20,119 nucleotides of DNA from a virus. The stretch is taken from UHGV virus genome UHGV-0174327, one strand, 5' to 3'. Under the pieces are notes generated by a model, which saw only the letters and a list, made by a program, of their open reading frames with translations, did no database searches and had not been told where the DNA came from. The position numbers and the translations under genes were made by a program. Below are positions 3,439-14,027 of this stretch, piece by piece. Numbering within the stretch: position 1 is the stretch's first letter; the number at the start of each line of letters is the position of its first letter.

Positions 3439-3533
3439 GCTGCTTTCTCCTGAAATAGAGGGCGGTGGACGGGGTTTTGATGTGGCAGTGCCTTTCGCCA
3501 CCCCGTGCCGCCCGTGCGCGGGGGCACGTTCTG

Positions 3534-4184
3534 TCAGCGGCTGTCATTGCGCAGTCTGCGCTCCAGCTGCTGTTTGTCTTTTTTCACGCCACAGCGAGGA
3601 TCGAGCTGTAACGCATGGTTGAGATGATTAAGGGCGGAAGCCGGGTTGCTTTCACTCAGGACAGCGCCAATCGCTTTATGCAGACGCGCCCGTGACTGGT
3701 CCGGCATATCCAGACCGTCTGTCAGCTCCAGCGTCTGCAGCAACAGATCGGCATCAAAGCCGGTGGCGGCAAGCATTGCGCTCTGCGCCGCGTCTGCCAT
3801 TTCCTCTGCCAGCACGGTCTGCACGTTGCGGTTACCCAGCGGCATCACCCAGCCATGACGCAGGGCATGACGCCCGATCTCCAGCGCCCCTGCATAATCT
3901 CCGGCATCAATGCGCCACAGCATCACGTACATCAGCACGTCATCCTGTTGAGCGCCTCCGGCAGCCAGAACGCCCTCCGCCCAGGCGGCATATTTCGGCA
4001 GCAGCTCCACCTTGATTTCTGCTTTTTTGACCGTGGACTGAACGCCCTTGAGACGGCGGCGGTCTTCCGCCAGTTGCAGCAGCATCAGGTCATAGCCCGA
4101 CGCGTGGCGAACACTGCCACCCTCGCGAGCGGCCTGTTCAGCCTGAACGCGCAGGCGATGCTGCCGTGCGGGACTCAGGCTCAT
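3534..4184 (-). CDS. M: terminase small/endonuclease subunit (P2 gpM family)
   Basis: 216 aa; ...QSTVKKAEIKVELLPKYAAWAEGVLAAGGAQQDDVLMYVMLWRIDAGDYAGALEIG... resembles P2 M; synteny N-M-L. Confidence 0.85.
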   Translation of the reverse strand: MSLSPARQHRLRVQAEQAAREGGSVRHASGYDLMLLQLAEDRRRLKGVQSTVKKAEIKVELLPKYAAWAEGVLAAGGAQQDDVLMYVMLWRIDAGDYAGALEIGRHALRHGWVMPLGNRNVQTVLAEEMADAAQSAMLAATGFDADLLLQTLELTDGLDMPDQSRARLHKAIGAVLSESNPASALNHLNHALQLDPRCGVKKDKQQLERRLRNDSR

Positions 4185-6238: not shown

Positions 6239-8005
6239 ATGAACACCACACTGACACCCGCAGATCTCGATCCCCGTCGGCAGGCCATGCTGCTGTACTT
6301 TCAGGGATACCGCGTCGCCCGCATTGCTGAAATGCTGGGCGAGAAAGTTGCAACTGTTCACAGCTGGAAAAAACGCGACAAGTGGGGTGACTATGGGCCG
6401 CTGGATCAGATGCAGCTCACCACCGCCGCACGCTACTGCCAGCTCATTATGAAGGAGCACAAAGAAGGGAAAGATTTCAAAGAGATTGACCTGCTGGCGC
6501 GCCAGTCGGAGCGCCACGCGCGGATCGGCAAGTTTAACAATGGCGGCAACGAAGCCGACTTAAACCCTAACGTCGCCAACCGCAACAAAGGCCCACGCCG
6601 TCAGCCGGAAAAGAATGTTTTCACCGATGAACAGATTGAGAAGCTGGAAGAAATCTTCCATTCCTCCATGTTCAACTACCAGCGCCACTGGTGGGAAGCC
6701 GGAAAAACCAACCGCATCCGCAACCTGCTGAAGTCACGCCAGATCGGCGCAACCTTCTATTTTGCCCGTGAAGCCCTGATTGACGCCCTGCTGACCGGAC
6801 GTAACCAGATTTTCCTTTCCGCCAGCAAGGCACAGGCCCACGTCTTTAAGCAGTACATCTTCGACTTCGCCAAAGAAGTGGAGGTGGAGCTGAAAGGTGA
6901 TCCGATGGTGCTTCCTAACGGTGCCACGCTTTACTTCCTCGGCACCAATGCCCGCACTGCCCAGAGTTATCACGGCAACCTGTATCTGGATGAATATTTC
7001 TGGATACCGAAATTTCAGGAGCTGCGTAAAGTGGCTTCCGGTATGGCTATTCACAAAAAATGGCGACAAACCTATTTTTCCACGCCATCAAGCCTGACCC
7101 ACAGTGCTTATCCGTTCTGGTCCGGTGCGCTGTTCAACCGTGGACGCAACAAAGCCGACAAGGTGGACATCGACCTGTCCCACAGCAATCTGGCCCCCGG
7201 CCTGCTGTGCGCAGACGGGCAATACCGCCAGATAGTCACCGTGGAAGATGCGGTGCGCGGCGGCTGCAACCTGTTCGACCTTGACCAGTTGCGCATGGAG
7301 TACAGCCCGGACGAATACCAGAACCTGCTGATGTGCGAGTTTGTGGACGATCTCGCGTCCGTGTTTCCGCTCAGCGAGCTGCAGGCGTGCATGGTGGACA
7401 GTTGGGAAGTCTGGACCGACTTTCATGCACTGGCCCTTCGCCCGTTTGGGTGGCGCGAAGTGTGGATCGGTTATGACCCGGCAAAAGGTACGCAGAACGG
7501 CGACAGCGCCGGATGCGTGGTGGTGGCACCGCCAGCCGTGCCGGGCGGTAAGTTCCGTATTCTTGAGCGCCACCAGTGGCGCGGGATGGACTTCCGCGCC
7601 CAGGCGGACGCCATCAAAAAACTGACCGAACAGTACAACGTGACATATATCGGCATCGACTCGACGGGTGTCGGTCACGGGGTTTACGAGAACGTGAAAG
7701 CGTTTTTTCCTGCCGTCCGGGAGTTTGTCTACAACCCCAACGTTAAAAATGCCCTGGTACTCAAGGCATACGACATTATCAGCCACCGCCGTCTGGAGTT
7801 TGACGCCGGGCACACCGACATTGCGCAGTCATTCATGGCAATCCGTCGCGCCACCACCGCCAGTGGCAACCGCCCGACCTATGAAGCCAGCCGCAGCGAA
7901 GAAGCCAGCCACGCCGATCTGGCCTGGGCAACGATGCACGCACTGTTTAATGAACCGCTGCAGGGCGAGTCCGCCAATACAAGCAATATTGTGGAGATTT
8001 TTTGA
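6239..8005 (+). CDS. P: terminase large (ATPase) subunit (P2 gpP family)
   Basis: 588 aa; family-typical length and sequence; divergent from O as in P2. Confidence 0.9.
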   Translation: MNTTLTPADLDPRRQAMLLYFQGYRVARIAEMLGEKVATVHSWKKRDKWGDYGPLDQMQLTTAARYCQLIMKEHKEGKDFKEIDLLARQSERHARIGKFNNGGNEADLNPNVANRNKGPRRQPEKNVFTDEQIEKLEEIFHSSMFNYQRHWWEAGKTNRIRNLLKSRQIGATFYFAREALIDALLTGRNQIFLSASKAQAHVFKQYIFDFAKEVEVELKGDPMVLPNGATLYFLGTNARTAQSYHGNLYLDEYFWIPKFQELRKVASGMAIHKKWRQTYFSTPSSLTHSAYPFWSGALFNRGRNKADKVDIDLSHSNLAPGLLCADGQYRQIVTVEDAVRGGCNLFDLDQLRMEYSPDEYQNLLMCEFVDDLASVFPLSELQACMVDSWEVWTDFHALALRPFGWREVWIGYDPAKGTQNGDSAGCVVVAPPAVPGGKFRILERHQWRGMDFRAQADAIKKLTEQYNVTYIGIDSTGVGHGVYENVKAFFPAVREFVYNPNVKNALVLKAYDIISHRRLEFDAGHTDIAQSFMAIRRATTASGNRPTYEASRSEEASHADLAWATMHALFNEPLQGESANTSNIVEIF

Positions 8006-9051
8006 TGGGAAAGAGTAAGAAAAACCGCGCTGCGGCGATGAATCACATCCAGCATAAAAGCCAGACTTCAGCCGAAGCATTCAGCTTCGGCGATCCCGTT
8101 CCTGTTCTGGACCGCCGAGAATTACTGGACTATGTGGAATGCGTACAGATGGACCGTTGGTATGAGCCGCCCGTCAGCTTTGACGGACTGGCGCGCACCT
8201 TCCGCGCCGCCGTGCATCACAGTTCCCCGATTGCAGTAAAGTGCAACATTCTGACCAGTACCTATATCCCTCATCCGCTGCTCAGCCAGCAGGCTTTTTC
8301 GCGTTTTGTGCAGGACTATCTGGTATTTGGTAACGCCTACCTGGAGAAACGCACGAACCGCTTCGGTGAAGTTATCGCCCTTGAACCGACCCTGGCAAAA
8401 TACACCCGACGCGGATTAGACCTGGATACCTACTGGTTTGTGCAATACGGCATGACTACGCAGCCGTATCAGTTCACGAAAGGCAGCATTTTTCATCTGA
8501 TGGAACCGGACATCAACCAGGAGATCTACGGCCTGCCCGGTTATCTTTCTGCCATTCCGTCAGCCCTGCTCAACGAGTCCGCCACGCTGTTCCGCCGCAA
8601 GTATTACATTAACGGCAGTCATGCAGGCTTCATCATGTACATGACCGATGCAGCGCAGAACCAGGAGGATGTGAACAACCTCCGCAATGCGATGAAAAGC
8701 GCCAAAGGTCCTGGTAACTTCCGTAACCTGTTTATGTACTCGCCTAACGGTAAAAAGGACGGGCTTCAGATTATCCCGTTGTCAGAAGTGGCGGCGAAGG
8801 ATGAGTTCCTGAATATCAAGAACGTGAGCCGGGACGACATGATGGCGGCGCATCGTGTGCCGCCACAAATGATGGGGATAATGCCTAATAATGTCGGGGG
8901 GTTTGGGGATGTAGAAAAGGCAAGCCGTGTCTTTGTCCGCAACGAGTTGATACCTCTGCAGAAACGCCTACAGGAACTTAACAACTGGCTGGGCGATGAA
9001 GTTATACGTTTCGAGCCGTACACTTTAGATATTCAGAATGAAAAGAAATAA
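8005..9051 (+). CDS. Q: portal protein (P2 gpQ family)
   Basis: ATG at 8005 overlaps P stop (TGATG); 348 aa; sequence and length fit P2 Q. Confidence 0.9.
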   Translation: MGKSKKNRAAAMNHIQHKSQTSAEAFSFGDPVPVLDRRELLDYVECVQMDRWYEPPVSFDGLARTFRAAVHHSSPIAVKCNILTSTYIPHPLLSQQAFSRFVQDYLVFGNAYLEKRTNRFGEVIALEPTLAKYTRRGLDLDTYWFVQYGMTTQPYQFTKGSIFHLMEPDINQEIYGLPGYLSAIPSALLNESATLFRRKYYINGSHAGFIMYMTDAAQNQEDVNNLRNAMKSAKGPGNFRNLFMYSPNGKKDGLQIIPLSEVAAKDEFLNIKNVSRDDMMAAHRVPPQMMGIMPNNVGGFGDVEKASRVFVRNELIPLQKRLQELNNWLGDEVIRFEPYTLDIQNEKK

Positions 9052-9079
9052 AAGTTAGCGAATAAAAATCATTAGCATA

Positions 9080-9098
9080 GGCCGCAAACTGAGCGGCC
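9080..9098. terminator. bidirectional hairpin terminator between portal (+) and the 89-aa gene (-)
   Basis: GGCCGC-aaactga-GCGGCC followed by T-rich tract on + strand and by A/T-rich run on - strand. Confidence 0.45.
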
Positions 9099-9105
9099 TT
9101 ATTCA

Positions 9106-9375
9106 TTACCAATTTCTTTTTTCGGAGTTTAGCCAATCACCGCATGGATAATATCTTGACGCCCATTCACCTTGTAAACGAGCTACAAACAGAATATCGT
9201 TACTATCGACCCTGGCTTGGAGTCCGTCACGCAGTTGAGTTGCGGTCAGCGTTGTATCTACTAACCAAAATGATTCAAGATATTTACAGTATGTAAATTG
9301 CTTTAGATAGTCAAAAACTTCATCGTAGTTTCTTCCCGGAGCCTTCAAGTCATAGGTTATACAATAAATAGCCAT
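9106..9375 (-). CDS. hypothetical 89-aa soluble protein (accessory cassette B, distal gene)
   Basis: MAIYCITYDLKAPGRNYDEVFDYLKQF...DSNDILFVARL; AT-rich; 3 nt downstream of the zinc-ribbon ORF; alternating beta/alpha pattern vaguely reminiscent of VapD/Cas2-like small proteins (unverified). Confidence 0.55.
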   Translation of the reverse strand: MAIYCITYDLKAPGRNYDEVFDYLKQFTYCKYLESFWLVDTTLTATQLRDGLQARVDSNDILFVARLQGEWASRYYPCGDWLNSEKRNW

Positions 9376-9378
9376 TCT

Positions 9379-9561
9379 CTAAGCTCCGCATTTTTTATCA
9401 TTTGGGGAACATCTTAACCTGCGACATTTGCGGCAATACGATTGAGGGATCAGCCGCTCTCCTTCCATAGTTCTAAAACCAAACACTTCTTCAATTTTGT
9501 TCAAATCACCACTTGCAATAACCCCACAGCAGGGGCAGACAGCCTCAATTTGAAATGCCAT
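9379..9561 (-). CDS. hypothetical ~60-aa zinc-ribbon protein (accessory cassette B, proximal gene)
   Basis: MAFQIEAVCPCCGV...CRKCRRLRC with CxxC...CxxC spacing; ATG at 9561 preceded by GGAGA (spacing 5); ORF-track start 9624 is an upstream extension. Confidence 0.5.
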   Translation of the reverse strand: MAFQIEAVCPCCGVIASGDLNKIEEVFGFRTMEGERLIPQSYCRKCRRLRCSPNDKKCGA

Positions 9562-9660
9562 GTCTATCTCCATTCCACATGTTGAATGTAGGGTAATACT
9601 TCCTTTCAAGCAAAAATGAGACAAGGATCTTGAAACCTAATTTAAACTTGCTTGCGCGCG

Positions 9661-9679
9661 CTCGTATCCCCGCCACGCC
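9661..9679 (-). other. cos-like site (cohesive-end sequence) of the prophage
   Basis: Reverse complement reads GGCGTGGCGGGGATACGAG followed by CGCGCGC; the P2/P4 cohesive end as I recall it is GGCGAGGCGGGGAAAGCAC followed by TGCGCGC (14/19 identical); location downstream of portal Q is where P2 has cos. Confidence 0.45.
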
Positions 9680-9714
9680 TGCCCGCTTTTTGTAGCGATT
9701 TTCATGCAGGTGCA

Positions 9715-9748
9715 TGACATAAGCAAAAGCCCACCAGAACTGGCGGGC
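9715..9748 (-). terminator. rho-independent terminator ending the three-gene cassette A
   Basis: Stem GCCCACCAG/CTGGCGGGC (one mismatch) followed on the minus strand by UUUUGCUU. Confidence 0.4.
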
Positions 9749-9796
9749 CTCAGCAAAAACGATCCTCAAACGATCATGCATATTCATGCGGCATAG

Positions 9797-10306
9797 TCAT
9801 GCAGTGACTTTGGTCTGGTCAGGCGTAGAAAAATCTTCGAAAGATTTATAAGTTTCAGTATCAAATATTGAAATACTCTCAACCTGATCCATTGGGATTA
9901 CATGCCTAAAATGATTTAAGTTCAGTGGAGTTGAGTCTGCTGTAATATTTTTACTAAGGTAAAGTTCATAGTAACGATGCTGCTCATGGTATCTGAGCGT
10001 ATCTTTATCACGATAACCACTGATGTATGGTATGAGAGCCAGATGCTGAGTTTCCTGATGCTCCATCCGAGGAGCAGCTACGTAACCAATGTAAACTTTT
10101 CTGGATTTTAGCGTAACAAAGATGAGCTTACCTTCATCTATAGCCTGAACTAACAGTGACTCAATTCCATCTTGAGCTGCCATCTCGCGATATGCAGATT
10201 GACGAATCTCTTCGTTTTCTATTGCTCTTCGCGCATTGTTACCTTGGTCATAAGCAATAAACACCGCAAGCAGCATAGACAACACAAAGAACAATGGGTA
10301 AGACAT
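9797..10306 (-). CDS. hypothetical ~169-aa protein with N-terminal TM helix and soluble C-terminal domain (cassette A, gene 3)
   Basis: MSYPLFFVLSMLLAVFIAY then hydrophilic domain; start at ATG 10306 five nt after the gene-2 stop (ORF-track 10342 is a GTG extension overlapping gene 2); AT-rich. Confidence 0.55.
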   Translation of the reverse strand: MSYPLFFVLSMLLAVFIAYDQGNNARRAIENEEIRQSAYREMAAQDGIESLLVQAIDEGKLIFVTLKSRKVYIGYVAAPRMEHQETQHLALIPYISGYRDKDTLRYHEQHRYYELYLSKNITADSTPLNLNHFRHVIPMDQVESISIFDTETYKSFEDFSTPDQTKVTA

Positions 10307-10311
10307 TATCT

Positions 10312-10578
10312 TTACGTCTGTGAGCCATGAATAAAAGTCCACATGTAACTTAGGCCAAAAATAACCAAAAAATTGATAACTGAGCTTATAACTAGCAAGG
10401 TAACGAATGTAACAGCCATCAGAGTAAACCCCTGAATAGCAAACTTACAACCATGCATAGCTACATAAAAATAGGAATTCCAACCATTACTTCTTGCTTG
10501 CCTGATGCGGGACTGGTAATGATTTTCGGTGTACCAGAACCCGCAAACCAGGACGACCATGATAACTAAGGGTCCCAT
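10312..10578 (-). CDS. hypothetical 88-aa integral membrane protein, two predicted TM segments (cassette A, gene 2)
   Basis: PLVIMVVLVCGFWY and FTLMAVTFVTLLVISSVINFLVIFGLSYMW hydrophobic stretches; start coupled to gene-1 stop (AAGGATGAGGAATG). Confidence 0.55.
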   Translation of the reverse strand: MGPLVIMVVLVCGFWYTENHYQSRIRQARSNGWNSYFYVAMHGCKFAIQGFTLMAVTFVTLLVISSVINFLVIFGLSYMWTFIHGSQT

Positions 10579-10581
10579 TCC

Positions 10582-10782
10582 TCATCCTTGTCGTTTTGCA
10601 GCCAATTCTTCCATTCTGGCACGCATTGATTCACGTACCTGCTTATTGTTCATGTTTAAGGTCGCCGCACCATTAGCATCTGTGATAATTTTACTATTAT
10701 CAGACTGTTGCACATCCTGACGGATGACATCCTGCATAATCTTACCTGGTGCAGAGAGAACTTTGCGCAGAAGTTCAGACAT
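10582..10782 (-). CDS. hypothetical 66-aa hydrophilic protein (cassette A, gene 1)
   Basis: MSELLRKVLSAPGKIMQDVIRQ...; ATG at 10782 preceded by AAGGAGG (spacing 5); ORF-track start 10857 is an upstream extension. Confidence 0.5.
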   Translation of the reverse strand: MSELLRKVLSAPGKIMQDVIRQDVQQSDNSKIITDANGAATLNMNNKQVRESMRARMEELAAKRQG

Positions 10783-10835
10783 ATTTTCCTCCTTATGCCT
10801 CAAACGCCACGGATTGTGGTGCATGGAAGCTGTCA

Positions 10836-10880
10836 TCTTATGATTATAGGACAACAAAAATACGAAACTATTCGAAGAGT
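10836..10880 (-). promoter_or_regulatory. candidate sigma70 promoter for cassette A (perfect TATAAT -10 on minus strand at 10848..10843)
   Basis: Minus strand reads ...ttgttgtccTATAATcataag...; -35 is weak (TAGTTT); about 55-nt leader to the ATG at 10782. Confidence 0.3.
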
Positions 10881-11001
10881 GCTACGTATTAACCTATTTA
10901 CATATCACCCTGCAACCAATTTATCCATAACTAACGCCTCGCACGGCTCGTTGCTCAACCTTGCGAACGGTAAAAACCAGTTTTATCGTCCGCAACGTTC
11001 C

Positions 11002-11232
11002 CTAATGTAACCAGCTGTCGTCTTCCCACACCTTCTGCATAATTTTCATCACTTGCTTCCTTTCTTCGTCCAGTTGCAGTCCGGTCAGTTCCACACCGTT
11101 AGAGCTACCTTTGCGGATACGAATTACCGTTTTGGGATACAGGGGGCGCAGATTGCGGTAAAGCTCGGATTCAAGGGCGTCCAGTGTAGACTGGCTAATC
11201 TTCTGCTCTTTATCGATCATTATTTCAATGCG
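11002..11232 (-). CDS. dinI: DinI-family protein (SOS-regulated RecA modulator homologue)
   Basis: MRIEIMIDKEQKISQSTLDALESELYRNLRPLYPKTVIRIRKGSSNGVELTGLQLDEERKQVMKIMQKVWEDDSWLH parallels E. coli DinI (MRIEVTIAK...WESADDW) as recalled; SD GAGGTGA; downstream of a LexA box. Confidence 0.7.
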   Translation of the reverse strand, partial: RIEIMIDKEQKISQSTLDALESELYRNLRPLYPKTVIRIRKGSSNGVELTGLQLDEERKQVMKIMQKVWEDDSWLH

Positions 11233-11245
11233 CATAAAAGTCACC

Positions 11246-11434
11246 TCAGCTGATGACATCCATTGAGCGGTTGTATTCGTGGGTTCTGATTTTTGCCATG
11301 AGTTCATCTGTTAGTTCAGAAACCCACTGCAAAGCCAGCCCCTTCTCTTCATCACTACACTCACTAGCCGCTACAAGCTTAAGAAAAAAATCAATGCGCT
11401 GGAGCTTCAAAGACTCCAAAAAATAGTCCTGCAT
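11246..11434 (-). CDS. hypothetical 62-aa protein, first gene of the LexA-controlled operon (possible Tum-like antirepressor, speculative)
   Basis: ATG at 11434 preceded by AGGAGGAAAG; about 45 nt downstream of a canonical LexA box; position corresponds to the 186 tum locus. Confidence 0.45.
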   Translation of the reverse strand: MQDYFLESLKLQRIDFFLKLVAASECSDEEKGLALQWVSELTDELMAKIRTHEYNRSMDVIS

Positions 11435-11474
11435 CTTTCCTCCTATGACACCAAAGCAATACTGTATACATAAC

Positions 11475-11494
11475 CACTGTTTATATTTACAGTA
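11475..11494. promoter_or_regulatory. LexA operator (SOS box) overlapping the promoter of the 62-aa/dinI-like operon
   Basis: CTGT-ttatattt-ACAG (11477..11492) fits CTGT-N8-ACAG with AT-rich spacer; a weaker overlapping CTGT-N8-CCAC half-match at 11462..11477; TATACT -10-like hexamer adjacent on minus strand. Confidence 0.6.
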
Positions 11495-11586
11495 TATAAT
11501 AATCTTACTGATGTAAAACGTTTTTTTACGTTCATCAGCCTGATATGCCTGGTATTATTAAGAGCACGAATTGTTAACCCGCGTAA

Positions 11587-11943
11587 TTAATACAGGTTCC
11601 GCCACTTATCATCTTCCTTCAGACGCTGGTTCCGATAGAAGATACGCAGGCCTGCTCCTGACGGAATACTGCCACCGCGAAGGAGTAAATCGACCTCTTT
11701 CTCGCTGCCATCAAATCCTCTGGACTTCAGTTCATAGACGAGCTGCTGTCGTTGATGGTCTGTAATTCGCTGTTTGTAGTCTCTACGCCGTTTCGGTTTC
11801 ACCAGGCGTAACCTTACAGCCAGCTCCCGGCGCTCTTTTTTGTTCATACTGTGCAGAAAATCGTGCAACTCCTTGTCATCCATGCGGGTAATATCCGTTC
11901 TGGTGTCCCCATCAGCTGATTTATCTTTCTCCTGTTGGTTCAA
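11587..11943 (-). CDS. hypothetical basic protein downstream of and overlapping replication gene A; start uncertain (TTG 11943, or ATG 11883)
   Basis: Lys/Arg-rich ([22 protein letters not shown]); no strong SD at any candidate start; conserved position after A in P2-like phages. Confidence 0.4.
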
Positions 11944-14027
11944 ATTTTCAGCAAGGGGACAGTTATTGCCACGAGTCCAAGGGGACAGTTATTGCCACGA
12001 GTCCAAGGGGCGCAAGCGCCCTGGTCGGCTGCCGCCTCCTGAACGTCAACGGCCTTACGAACCATTTTCCACTTCACTGCATGAGTGCAGATCTTGCCCT
12101 CTGCAATGGGTGACCAGATGCCATAAATACGAATACCGTGATCACCATAGGCGGTCGGCTCTTCGTTGATTTCATAAGCGGTTCTGATCAAGTGATATTT
12201 GCGGGGAACCAACACGCCGCCCTGCTTCATAATGTAGGTGGCAAAACAGCCAGCATCAGCAGCAGCCAGAATGGCATCAAGACGCGGATCATCCAGTACC
12301 GGCGCACCTGCTTTTTTGTCACCCTGCTGCCTTGCCGCCTGACCAGCCAGCAATCGCAGTTCACGGTAAGCCTGACGCCCCGGAATGCCAAAGAAGCGGA
12401 ATTGCTGAACACGATGCAGAGACGCCCAGGCATTAACGTATTCAGCGTTATCACGCAGGGATTTACCCGTTTCCTTGCTGATCTCGCCAGCCAGACCACG
12501 CCCGTCAATGTTCTTACTGATGTATTTCGCGATGTAGCTTGTCGGCGTTCCTTTGCGCGGGTTAATCAGCTCAGACTTAAAGCGTGGCCCCGTGTTATTG
12601 CCCAGTTCCTCGCGGTCTTCACGGATGGCAAACTTACGCAGTAATGCAGTGATGGCGCGGCGGTCTTTTTTACGCATGAAGCACATGAGATGCCAGTGCA
12701 CAGTACCGTCATGATGCGGCTCAGCCACCCGCACGCCATACCACCGCAATCCGGCTTTGTGCATCGCCTTACGAAATGCAGCAAACATGCCGACCAGATA
12801 ATCACTGCTTTGTCTTACCGTCGCATTTGTCCAGGTCGGGTTTGGTCTGCCGTTATTGAGCGTGGAATGGAAACGTGACGGACAGGTGATGGTGTAGAAA
12901 ACGGCGCAGTCACCGCGCATTTCCGCGATAAGCTCCAGACCTTTAACGCAGGCCATCATCTCATTGCGGCGATGTGCCGGGTTGCTGCTGCTGGCGTTTA
13001 CCACATCTTCCATATCCAGCGTGTCTCCGTCTTCGTTCACCAGTTCATGAGAACGGAAAAACTCCAGCGACTTGCGGCGCTGCTCACGTTTATGCGTCAC
13101 TGCTTCATAGCTGACATAGGGAGATGCTTTTTTGCTGACCAGACAGACAGCACGCAACTGCTCTTCCCGCCATTCGCAACGCATCTTCCACAATTTTCGA
13201 TACCACCAGTCGGCGCAAAGCATACGTGCCAGCGAACCCGGTATGAGTTCATAGGGCACAGGTTTGCGGCGGTTTCTTTTCCGACGAAGTTTCTCAAACG
13301 CAGGCGGGATAACATCCAGACGCAGGGTTTCCGCAGCCACCTTTTCCCATGTCTTGCGGATTTCTTCTGGCTTAACGTCATCGGTGGCGTACAAATCACC
13401 ACAAGCGGCCTCAAGACACATGCTCATATGCGCTGCTACCAGGGTGGACAGGCGTTTCACCTGATCCTGGCTCATTTCAGGCAGGATCAGCAGCCCCTCC
13501 AGCCCTTGATGGCTTGCCATAAAACGGAAAGAAACAGATAGCTGACTGTCACGTACACAATCCAGTCGCTCCAGACATGGCTTAATCGTCTCACGCAAAT
13601 AGCGGGAATAAGCCTTTGGCCTGCCCAGGCTGCTGAAGTATTCGATACGTTGCATCAGCGGCTTGCTGATATGAGAAGGCTGGGCGCTGACATCTGCCAG
13701 AATGACCATGTCCGGGTTAAAACGCTGCTGCTCATGCGCCAGCTTTGCCCGGCTAATGAGCTTATCCTGCTCCATTTCGCGCTGGACAGGATCACGGGAT
13801 TCATTAAAGAAATAACGCTCCCAGACCTGCTCACTCAGTGCCTCGCGGCGCAGTTGTTCCTGCTCGTTATCGGCAGCGTACAGAGTGATCAGGTTTGAAA
13901 GTGCAGACTCCGGCGCAACTTCCGCCGGATCCAGATAAGGGTTAATGGCCTTTTTCGGGCCGTTCCATGAAAATGCTGCGGCAGCCTCGTTAAAGCCGCT
14001 AGAGTTGCTCATATCGTCATGACTCAT
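11940..14027 (-). CDS. A: replication initiation endonuclease (P2/186 gpA family, rolling-circle initiator)
   Basis: 695 aa, size and sequence consistent with 186/P2 A; ATG at 14027 overlaps dam stop (ATGA). Confidence 0.85.
11952..12010. repeat. tandem direct repeat, 26 bp x 2.3 (CAAGGGGACAGTTATTGCCACGAGTC) inside the 3' end of gene A
   Basis: Copies at 11952..11977 and 11978..12003 are identical; partial third copy CAAGGGG at 12004..12010, followed by palindrome GGGCGCaaGCGCCC. Confidence 0.85.

Follow-up and report, generated by a model that had tools for sequence, protein, structure and literature searches.

A predicted P2-family cohesive-end site between two accessory gene slots of an Escherichia coli prophage

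Genes and features around the conserved block

The locus lies in a 20,119-nucleotide stretch of the viral genome UHGV-0174327, referred to here as the window. A conserved block of 151 bp sits between the portal gene, a homolog of P2 Q, and the replication gene A, and cargo genes occupy the space on both of its sides (Table 1). At least 80% of the window is matched in 720 of 5,426 complete E. coli genomes, which identifies it as a common E. coli prophage. The right end of the window matches almost every E. coli chromosome.

Both terminase subunits are encoded at full length. The large subunit is 63% identical to P2 gpP and to 186 Orf12 and is predicted to be the ATPase/nuclease that cuts cos, while the small subunit, 49% identical to P2 gpM and to 186 R, is the predicted cos-recognition protein. 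On the right-arm side, the DinI/Tum-like gene suggests an SOS-inducible induction switch of the 186 type rather than the P2 type. On the left-arm side, the portal gene is followed by a hairpin at the position equivalent to that at which tQ is annotated in P2 and tW in 186.

The left-arm cargo consists of two short genes. The 60-aa protein carries a CxxC...CxxC pattern and belongs to phrog_19700, and the 89-aa protein belongs to phrog_1090. Neither matched an entry in Pfam, NCBIfam or PDB sequence searches, and the sole PADLOC result was a weak Cas2/Cas2b hit of the 89-aa protein (E = 5e-4). The pair may represent a small uncharacterised two-gene module, in a slot that in relatives holds TIR, AIPR and TIGR02391 genes. 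The genes found at this slot in relatives are unrelated to those of the window and also include nuclease genes.

The main right-arm cargo gene, of family phrog_3630, is split into two overlapping ORFs (9797-10342 and 10312-10578) by a 1-nt deletion in an A-run near position 10371; E. coli 13TMH22 has the intact gene, encoding 260 aa. Homology of this cargo to orf97, the right-arm cargo of phage 186, was considered and dismissed, as the two show no similarity.

Table 1. Positions in the window of the conserved block, its elements and the neighbouring genes
Feature	Coordinates	Strand	Remarks
Small terminase subunit, homolog of P2 gpM and 186 R	3534..4184	-	phrog_74, E = 1.4e-88
Large terminase subunit, homolog of P2 gpP	6239..8005	+	terminase large subunit PHROG families
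Portal, homolog of P2 gpQ	8002..9051	+	first conserved left-arm gene; Pfam Phage_portal, E = 1.8e-18
Hairpin 3' of portal gene, in place of P2 tQ/186 tW	9079..9099	+	inner boundary of left cargo slot
Left-arm cargo, cos to Q	9106..9561	-	60-aa protein, 9379-9561; 89-aa protein, 9106-9375
Conserved block, predicted cos, 151 bp	9654..9804	-	125 bp of right arm, 19-nt overhang, 7 bp of left arm
Equivalent of 55-bp P2/P4 core	9654..9708	-	TGCATGAAAATCGCTACAAAAAGCGGGCA, 19-mer, CGCGCGC
CGCGCGC, directly after 19-mer	9660-9654	-	sole conserved sequence on left-arm side of predicted cut
Predicted 19-nt cohesive end, GGCGTGGCGGGGATACGAG	9661..9679	-	from alignment to annotated P2 and 186 ends
Perfect palindrome TCATGCA-nn-TGCATGA	9702..9717		distal edge of core; conserved in relatives
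GC-rich hairpin, GCCCGCCA-GUUC-UGGUGGGC, then UUUUGCUU (U-tract)	9721..9751	-	
Two AAACGATC direct repeats, 11 bp apart	9757..9775		Fels-2-like lineage only, in the alignment
Three direct GCATGA/TGCAT repeats	9774..9803	-	far edge of block; first bases 9802, 9789 and 9779
Right-arm cargo, DinI/Tum to cos	9797..10857	-	split phrog_3630 gene; small ORF within 10582-10857
DinI/Tum-like gene	11002-11307	-	near right end, as in 186
Replication gene A	11940-14027 (gene span 11587-14027)	-	

The cohesive-end sequence and the block around it

A preliminary description of this DNA had read the reverse complement of positions 9661-9679 as GGCGTGGCGGGGATACGAG followed by CGCGCGC and compared it with the cohesive end of P2/P4. 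Re-extraction from the window returned exactly this sequence. The P2 end used for that comparison was also right, with bases 1-19 of cosL in the P2 record (NC_001895) reading GGCGAGGCGGGGAAAGCAC and continuing as TGCGCGC, and the identity between the two, when recomputed, was again 14/19, the remaining 5 of the 19 overhang positions differing from P2. As evidence, the count stands but its significance on its own does not: shuffled windows contained an average of 0.57 sites matching at 14/19 or better, so that a match at this level, taken alone, is not above chance.

Comparison with phage 186 gave a closer match. Bases 1-19 of cos in the 186 record (NC_001317) read GGCGTGGCGGGGAAAGCAT, followed by TGCGCGC, and agree with the window at 15/19 positions, the first 13 nt being identical. 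The 13-mer GGCGWGGCGGGGA is present once in the window against an expectation of 0.03 copies. For the 26-mer formed by the 19-mer and the 7 bp after it, the match was 20/26, with 17 at the next-best site. Over the 55-bp core, aligned without gaps, the window matches P2 at 41/55 positions and P4 and 186 at 43/55 each, whereas the next-best 55-mer of the window reaches 29. All invariant columns of the family consensus, GGCG.GGCGGGGA.A..A. then GCGCGC, are present in the window 19-mer. Alignment with the cos regions of P2, P4 and 186 had been suggested as a check; all three align here, and the multiple alignment is ungapped and in register with the end-joined termini. A 13-mer search and a core scan found no second cos-like site in the window.

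The same sequence occurs widely in related phages. BLAST of the surrounding 500 bp recovered a single block, 9652-9803, with E values down to 1e-53, common to dozens of P2-like phages of Klebsiella, Salmonella, Escherichia and Yersinia. The 19-mer together with CGCGCGC is identical in Fels-2, SopEPhi, 813R9 (E. coli), MLG42 (Yersinia), SEN8 and Cartapus. The record of the Salmonella phage SEN8 begins exactly at the identical 19-mer, which it labels 'putative cos site', and the SEN8 genome announcement gives the same sequence as cos, the site having been identified during annotation (PMC5427200). In the record of the E. coli phage Cartapus, the sequence falls within bases 1-59, labelled 'putative cos site, homologous to the cos of P2 phage'; virions of Cartapus, produced by strain LF82, have been reported (PMC9928086). 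The Cartapus paper and the Yersinia Eganvirus paper do not address cos. No experimental determination of the virion ends for this cos subtype, marked by ATACGAG, turned up in a literature search, and the sequence itself was found only in the SEN8 announcement.

Genomic context agrees with these matches. The preliminary description placed the site downstream of portal gene Q and before the right-end genes, and it does lie between Q and gene A, and its overhang sequence runs in the direction of Q, like those of P2 and 186. The exact 26-mer was found in at least 120 IMG/VR viral contigs. Portal and/or gpA homologs are present at 113 of 128 26-mer loci and lie in the expected arms wherever they were found. 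P4-like satellites share the cos of their helper and also carry cos-adjacent hotspots (PMC9122126), and the site could in principle be that of such a satellite, or a stray copy, and not the prophage's own. Such an origin is at odds with the neighbouring genes, the portal and terminase genes of P2 type to one side of the site and DinI with gpA to the other, and with the lack of homologs of P4 psu, sid and delta at any of the 128 26-mer loci listed. In the window itself, no genes of the psu, sid, delta or alpha type are contiguous with this cos. We rejected it on these grounds and regard it as extremely improbable.

One metagenomic IMG/VR contig, L077 (IMGVR_UViG_3300011853_000021), has two inverted copies of the 26-mer, at 3440-3465 on the minus strand and 6704-6729 on the plus strand. 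The copies lie 3.2 kb apart and enclose an ISL3 transposase gene and a DinI gene, and each is bordered on its outside by a portal gene. The arrangement probably reflects either chimeric assembly or a rearrangement, associated with the IS, of two related prophages.

A chance match, the level at which 14/19 alone would stand, is rejected only on the combined weight of the 55-bp core, the perfect agreement with sites annotated as cos and the surrounding genes. The matching sequence, its place, direction and conservation, and the presence in the same element of its cognate genes were all observed directly, and we consider it very probable that 9654-9804 is the cos of a P2-family (186/Fels-2-like, Peduoviridae) E. 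coli prophage. The original observation is confirmed and its interpretation as cos is supported. The site is an ordinary cos of an already known type, and its main use is as an annotation anchor.

The extent of the block was defined from a conservation profile of 126 distinct carriers aligned on the 26-mer as anchor. Counting from the first G of the overhang, conservation is mostly above 0.9 between -125 and +25 (9804 down to 9654), and outside the block both flanks lie at about 0.35, the random level. At the left edge the profile falls from 1.00 to about 0.45 after +25. The sequence (Y)GCGCGC does not vary across P2, P4, 186 and the Fels-2-like relatives, without exception, and homology to the relatives stops at 9653/9652.

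Several elements can be distinguished within the right-arm part of the block. At the distal edge of the core, the TGCAT half of the palindrome is invariant in P2, P4 and 186, and the palindrome is a candidate terminase-binding element. The block holds five copies of TGCAT/ATGCA, against 0.33 expected (Poisson P ~3e-5). Among the three direct repeats at the far edge, the GCAT cores of repeats 2 and 3 are invariant in 10/10 aligned sequences, and repeat 1 is kept in all of them except P2, in which it is displaced by one base. The spacer between these repeats and the core is unrelated in P2, P4 and 186. Because the repeats are conserved while the spacer diverges, we propose them as recognition elements, and on this pattern of conservation they form a candidate recognition array for the small terminase subunit.

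The spacer of the window contains the GC-rich hairpin, with a fold energy of -22.8 kcal/mol (z = -3.3). It was missed by a simple terminator scan, and was instead characterised by folding and conservation. Its stem is kept in the 121 distinct carrier sequences examined, while the loop varies. Stem changes are mostly C-to-T on the strand in P2 orientation, and G-U pairing is kept on the minus-strand transcript. This pattern fits a terminator, and the hairpin looks like an intrinsic one for minus-strand transcripts of the right-arm cargo and DinI genes running toward cos.

In the 121 carriers the loop region (9729-9748) occurs as CAGAACTG or as CAGTTCTG, two mirror forms that are each the reverse complement of the other.

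A terminator-like hairpin that is itself conserved could mean that the whole block of about 150 bp is maintained for another reason, as a terminator, regulatory site, small RNA or small ORF, in which case the likeness of the 19-mer would be incidental and the true cos would lie elsewhere. Several database records do annotate a 'hypothetical protein' over the block, and the chance level of the 14/19 match taken alone would fit such a coincidence. The conservation profile, however, peaks at the 19-mer and its immediate flanks and not at the hairpin, and the block aligns without gaps to the annotated ends of P2, P4 and 186 in the same place and orientation. A coding role was rejected: ORF 9545-9787 crosses the conservation edge at 9653 and so is not itself conserved, and, as it also has no family hit, we treat it as spurious. 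For an RNA, Rfam returned no match at the gathering threshold in the whole window, with only a sub-threshold hit (E = 0.43) in 9500-9900. With no second cos-like site in the window to take its place, we judge a function other than cos to be very improbable.

Proposed packaging and the state of the prophage copy

Homology with P2 and 186 suggests how the site would be used. After induction and replication, the terminase formed by the products of 3534-4184 and 6239-8005 would bind the recognition region of about 125 bp on the future right end, including the GCATGA repeats (9774-9803) and the palindrome (9702-9717). It would then nick the minus strand at 9680/9679 and the plus strand, 19 nt away, at 9661/9660, which would leave complementary 19-nt 5' overhangs with GGCGTGGCGGGGATACGAG at the left end. 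Nick positions, overhang polarity and repeat function are all carried over from P2 and 186 by homology, and the scheme of the cuts follows our reading of the 186 record ('top strand cut at 5' end and bottom strand cut at 3' end').

One genome length would be packaged, starting at 9679 and proceeding to lower coordinates through the small cargo genes (9561-9106), Q and P, and ending at 9680, reached from higher coordinates through A, DinI, the cargo at 9797-10857 and the cos block. After injection, annealing of the overhangs would recircularise the genome. The preliminary description made its cassette B the leftmost and its cassette A the rightmost DNA of the packaged genome; by homology this agrees with the direction proposed here, provided that B is the cassette adjoining Q.

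In this particular copy, gene A contains, at 11952-12010, a perfect 26-bp tandem duplication, CAAGGGGACAGTTATTGCCACGAGTC, in 2.3 copies, which is not found in the two relatives compared, the E. coli 13TMH22 and CFT073 copies. The duplication shifts the reading frame and yields ORFs of 695 aa and 118 aa, the latter matching the C-terminal part of the nickase family. With gene A frameshifted, this copy may never replicate or package, and the duplication may reflect either a replication-defective prophage or an assembly error.

Should the indels be real, the prophage may be defective, in which case the cos, itself intact, may serve only in trans, if at all. The phage would then make no use of its own site, which at most could be cut by a P2-like phage resident in the same cell and sharing its packaging specificity. 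The split of gene A and the second frameshift, in the cargo gene at about 10371, both point in this direction. Against it, the cos block is matched at 100% identity in other E. coli prophages, and the terminase, portal and DinI genes are full length. Both indels could also be assembly or sequencing errors, and truncation of the gpA C-terminus might be tolerated. On balance we think it rather unlikely that the site lies in a defective prophage and goes unused by its own phage.

Probable cargo exchange at the block and comparison with known systems

Prophages that are otherwise similar differ greatly in the genes they carry between gpA and gpQ, beside cos, which marks the region as a hotspot. 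Across carriers, 168 to 3551 bp separate cos from Q and 205 to 3444 bp separate DinI from cos, so both slots occur empty as well as filled. When the 113 loci with complete flanks were clustered, they fell into 58 right-flank and 85 left-flank clusters in 104 distinct combinations, and the largest right-flank cluster, with 16 members, was joined to 12 different left partners. The left and right cargo assort nearly independently.

The window itself is a mosaic with respect to relatives. Positions 9652-11500 are 99.9% identical to E. coli 13TMH22, and the two are unrelated to the left of 9652. The joint with both 13TMH22 and CFT073 falls at 9651/9652; beyond it, the left slot holds a TIR-domain gene and a hypothetical gene in 13TMH22 and a TIGR02391 gene in CFT073. 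Conversely, 8180-9808 of the window is 98.6% identical to another IMG/VR locus, L086, with unrelated sequence beyond 9808. The preliminary description had suggested that the modules beside cos can be exchanged around it, and the two mosaic joints, at 9652 and 9808, together with the near-independent assortment of the flanks, bear this out; because of them, we regard exchange of cargo around cos as well supported. As the only conserved DNA between the two variable slots, the 151-bp block would serve as a homology patch for cargo reassortment.

These findings can be brought together in one model, which we put forward tentatively, at slightly less than an even chance. The 125 bp of the right end, comprising the three GCATGA repeats, a lineage-specific spacer with the hairpin and the palindrome, would constitute a complete recognition array for the small terminase subunit, with only 7 bp of the left end needed. 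The block would be the sole patch of homology between two independently exchangeable slots, and the combination found in the window would have arisen by a crossover inside it, joining a left half like that of L086 to a right half like that of 13TMH22.

The literature already covers both the hotspots adjoining cos and recombination at cos. Rousset et al. 2022 (PMC9122126) described accessory and anti-phage genes in hotspots beside cos in P2-like phages, and speculate in their discussion that cohesive ends promote recombination at cos. Dodd and Egan 1996, as cited in PMC5694545, had already recognised a hotspot for insertions in the slot between cos and the terminator that follows the portal gene. 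The region in the window is the same in kind as the Rousset hotspot, with variable cargo between gpA and gpQ beside cos; unlike the anti-phage cargo of that hotspot, its own genes are without known defence function. Our analysis adds only resolution, in the form of two slots, a block of 151 bp with exact edges, the repeat architecture of that block and the near-independent assortment of the cargo.

Locating cos fixes the ends and the orientation of the packaged genome, and places the accessory genes beside it at the two extremities of the virion chromosome, as its first and last DNA. This is of use in annotating the neighbouring cassettes, in predicting packageable satellites or cosmids and in interpreting cargo exchange. 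Current understanding is unchanged, since the site, its sequence subtype and the hotspots flanking cos have already been documented in P2-like phages.

The closest known counterparts are the sites of SEN8, Fels-2, SopEPhi and Cartapus (Felsduovirus/Elveevirus, Peduoviridae). These phages have the right-arm block of about 125 bp in common with the window at 86-91% identity, with few substitutions (AAAATCGC versus AAAACCAC, and G-U wobble in the hairpin). Their cos has the same position as in the window, between DinI/gpA and the portal gene, and is likewise only 'putative'. They carry other cargo genes on both sides of it.

Phage 186 resembles the window in its gene order, including a Tum/DinI gene near the right end, and in having both the TGCAT repeats and the TCATGCA-nn-TGCAT element. 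It differs in the last six positions of the overhang, AAAGCAT in 186 and ATACGAG in the window, and its spacer between repeats and core is unrelated.

For P2 and P4, a shared cos core of 55 bp was described by Ziermann and Calendar 1990, as cited in PMC5694545. Within it, GGCG.GGCGGGGA, AAG.GGGC, TGCAT.AAAA and GCGCGC are invariant among P2, P4 and the window. As in the window, the P2 cos adjoins Q. With only 49% and 63% identity between the terminase subunits, cross-packaging is uncertain. No P4-like element with the exact 26-mer of the window was present among the 128 loci listed.

The cohesive ends of lambda are 12 nt long, against the 19 nt predicted here by homology with P2 and 186, and the two sites have no sequence similarity. 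In the description given in PMC4669245, the lambda cos (cosQ-cosN-cosB) is likewise composite, with a nicking site between terminase recognition elements, and generates 5' cohesive ends. Unlike the lambda site, that of the window has its extended conserved region on the right-end side of the predicted cut, with only 7 bp conserved on the left-end side.
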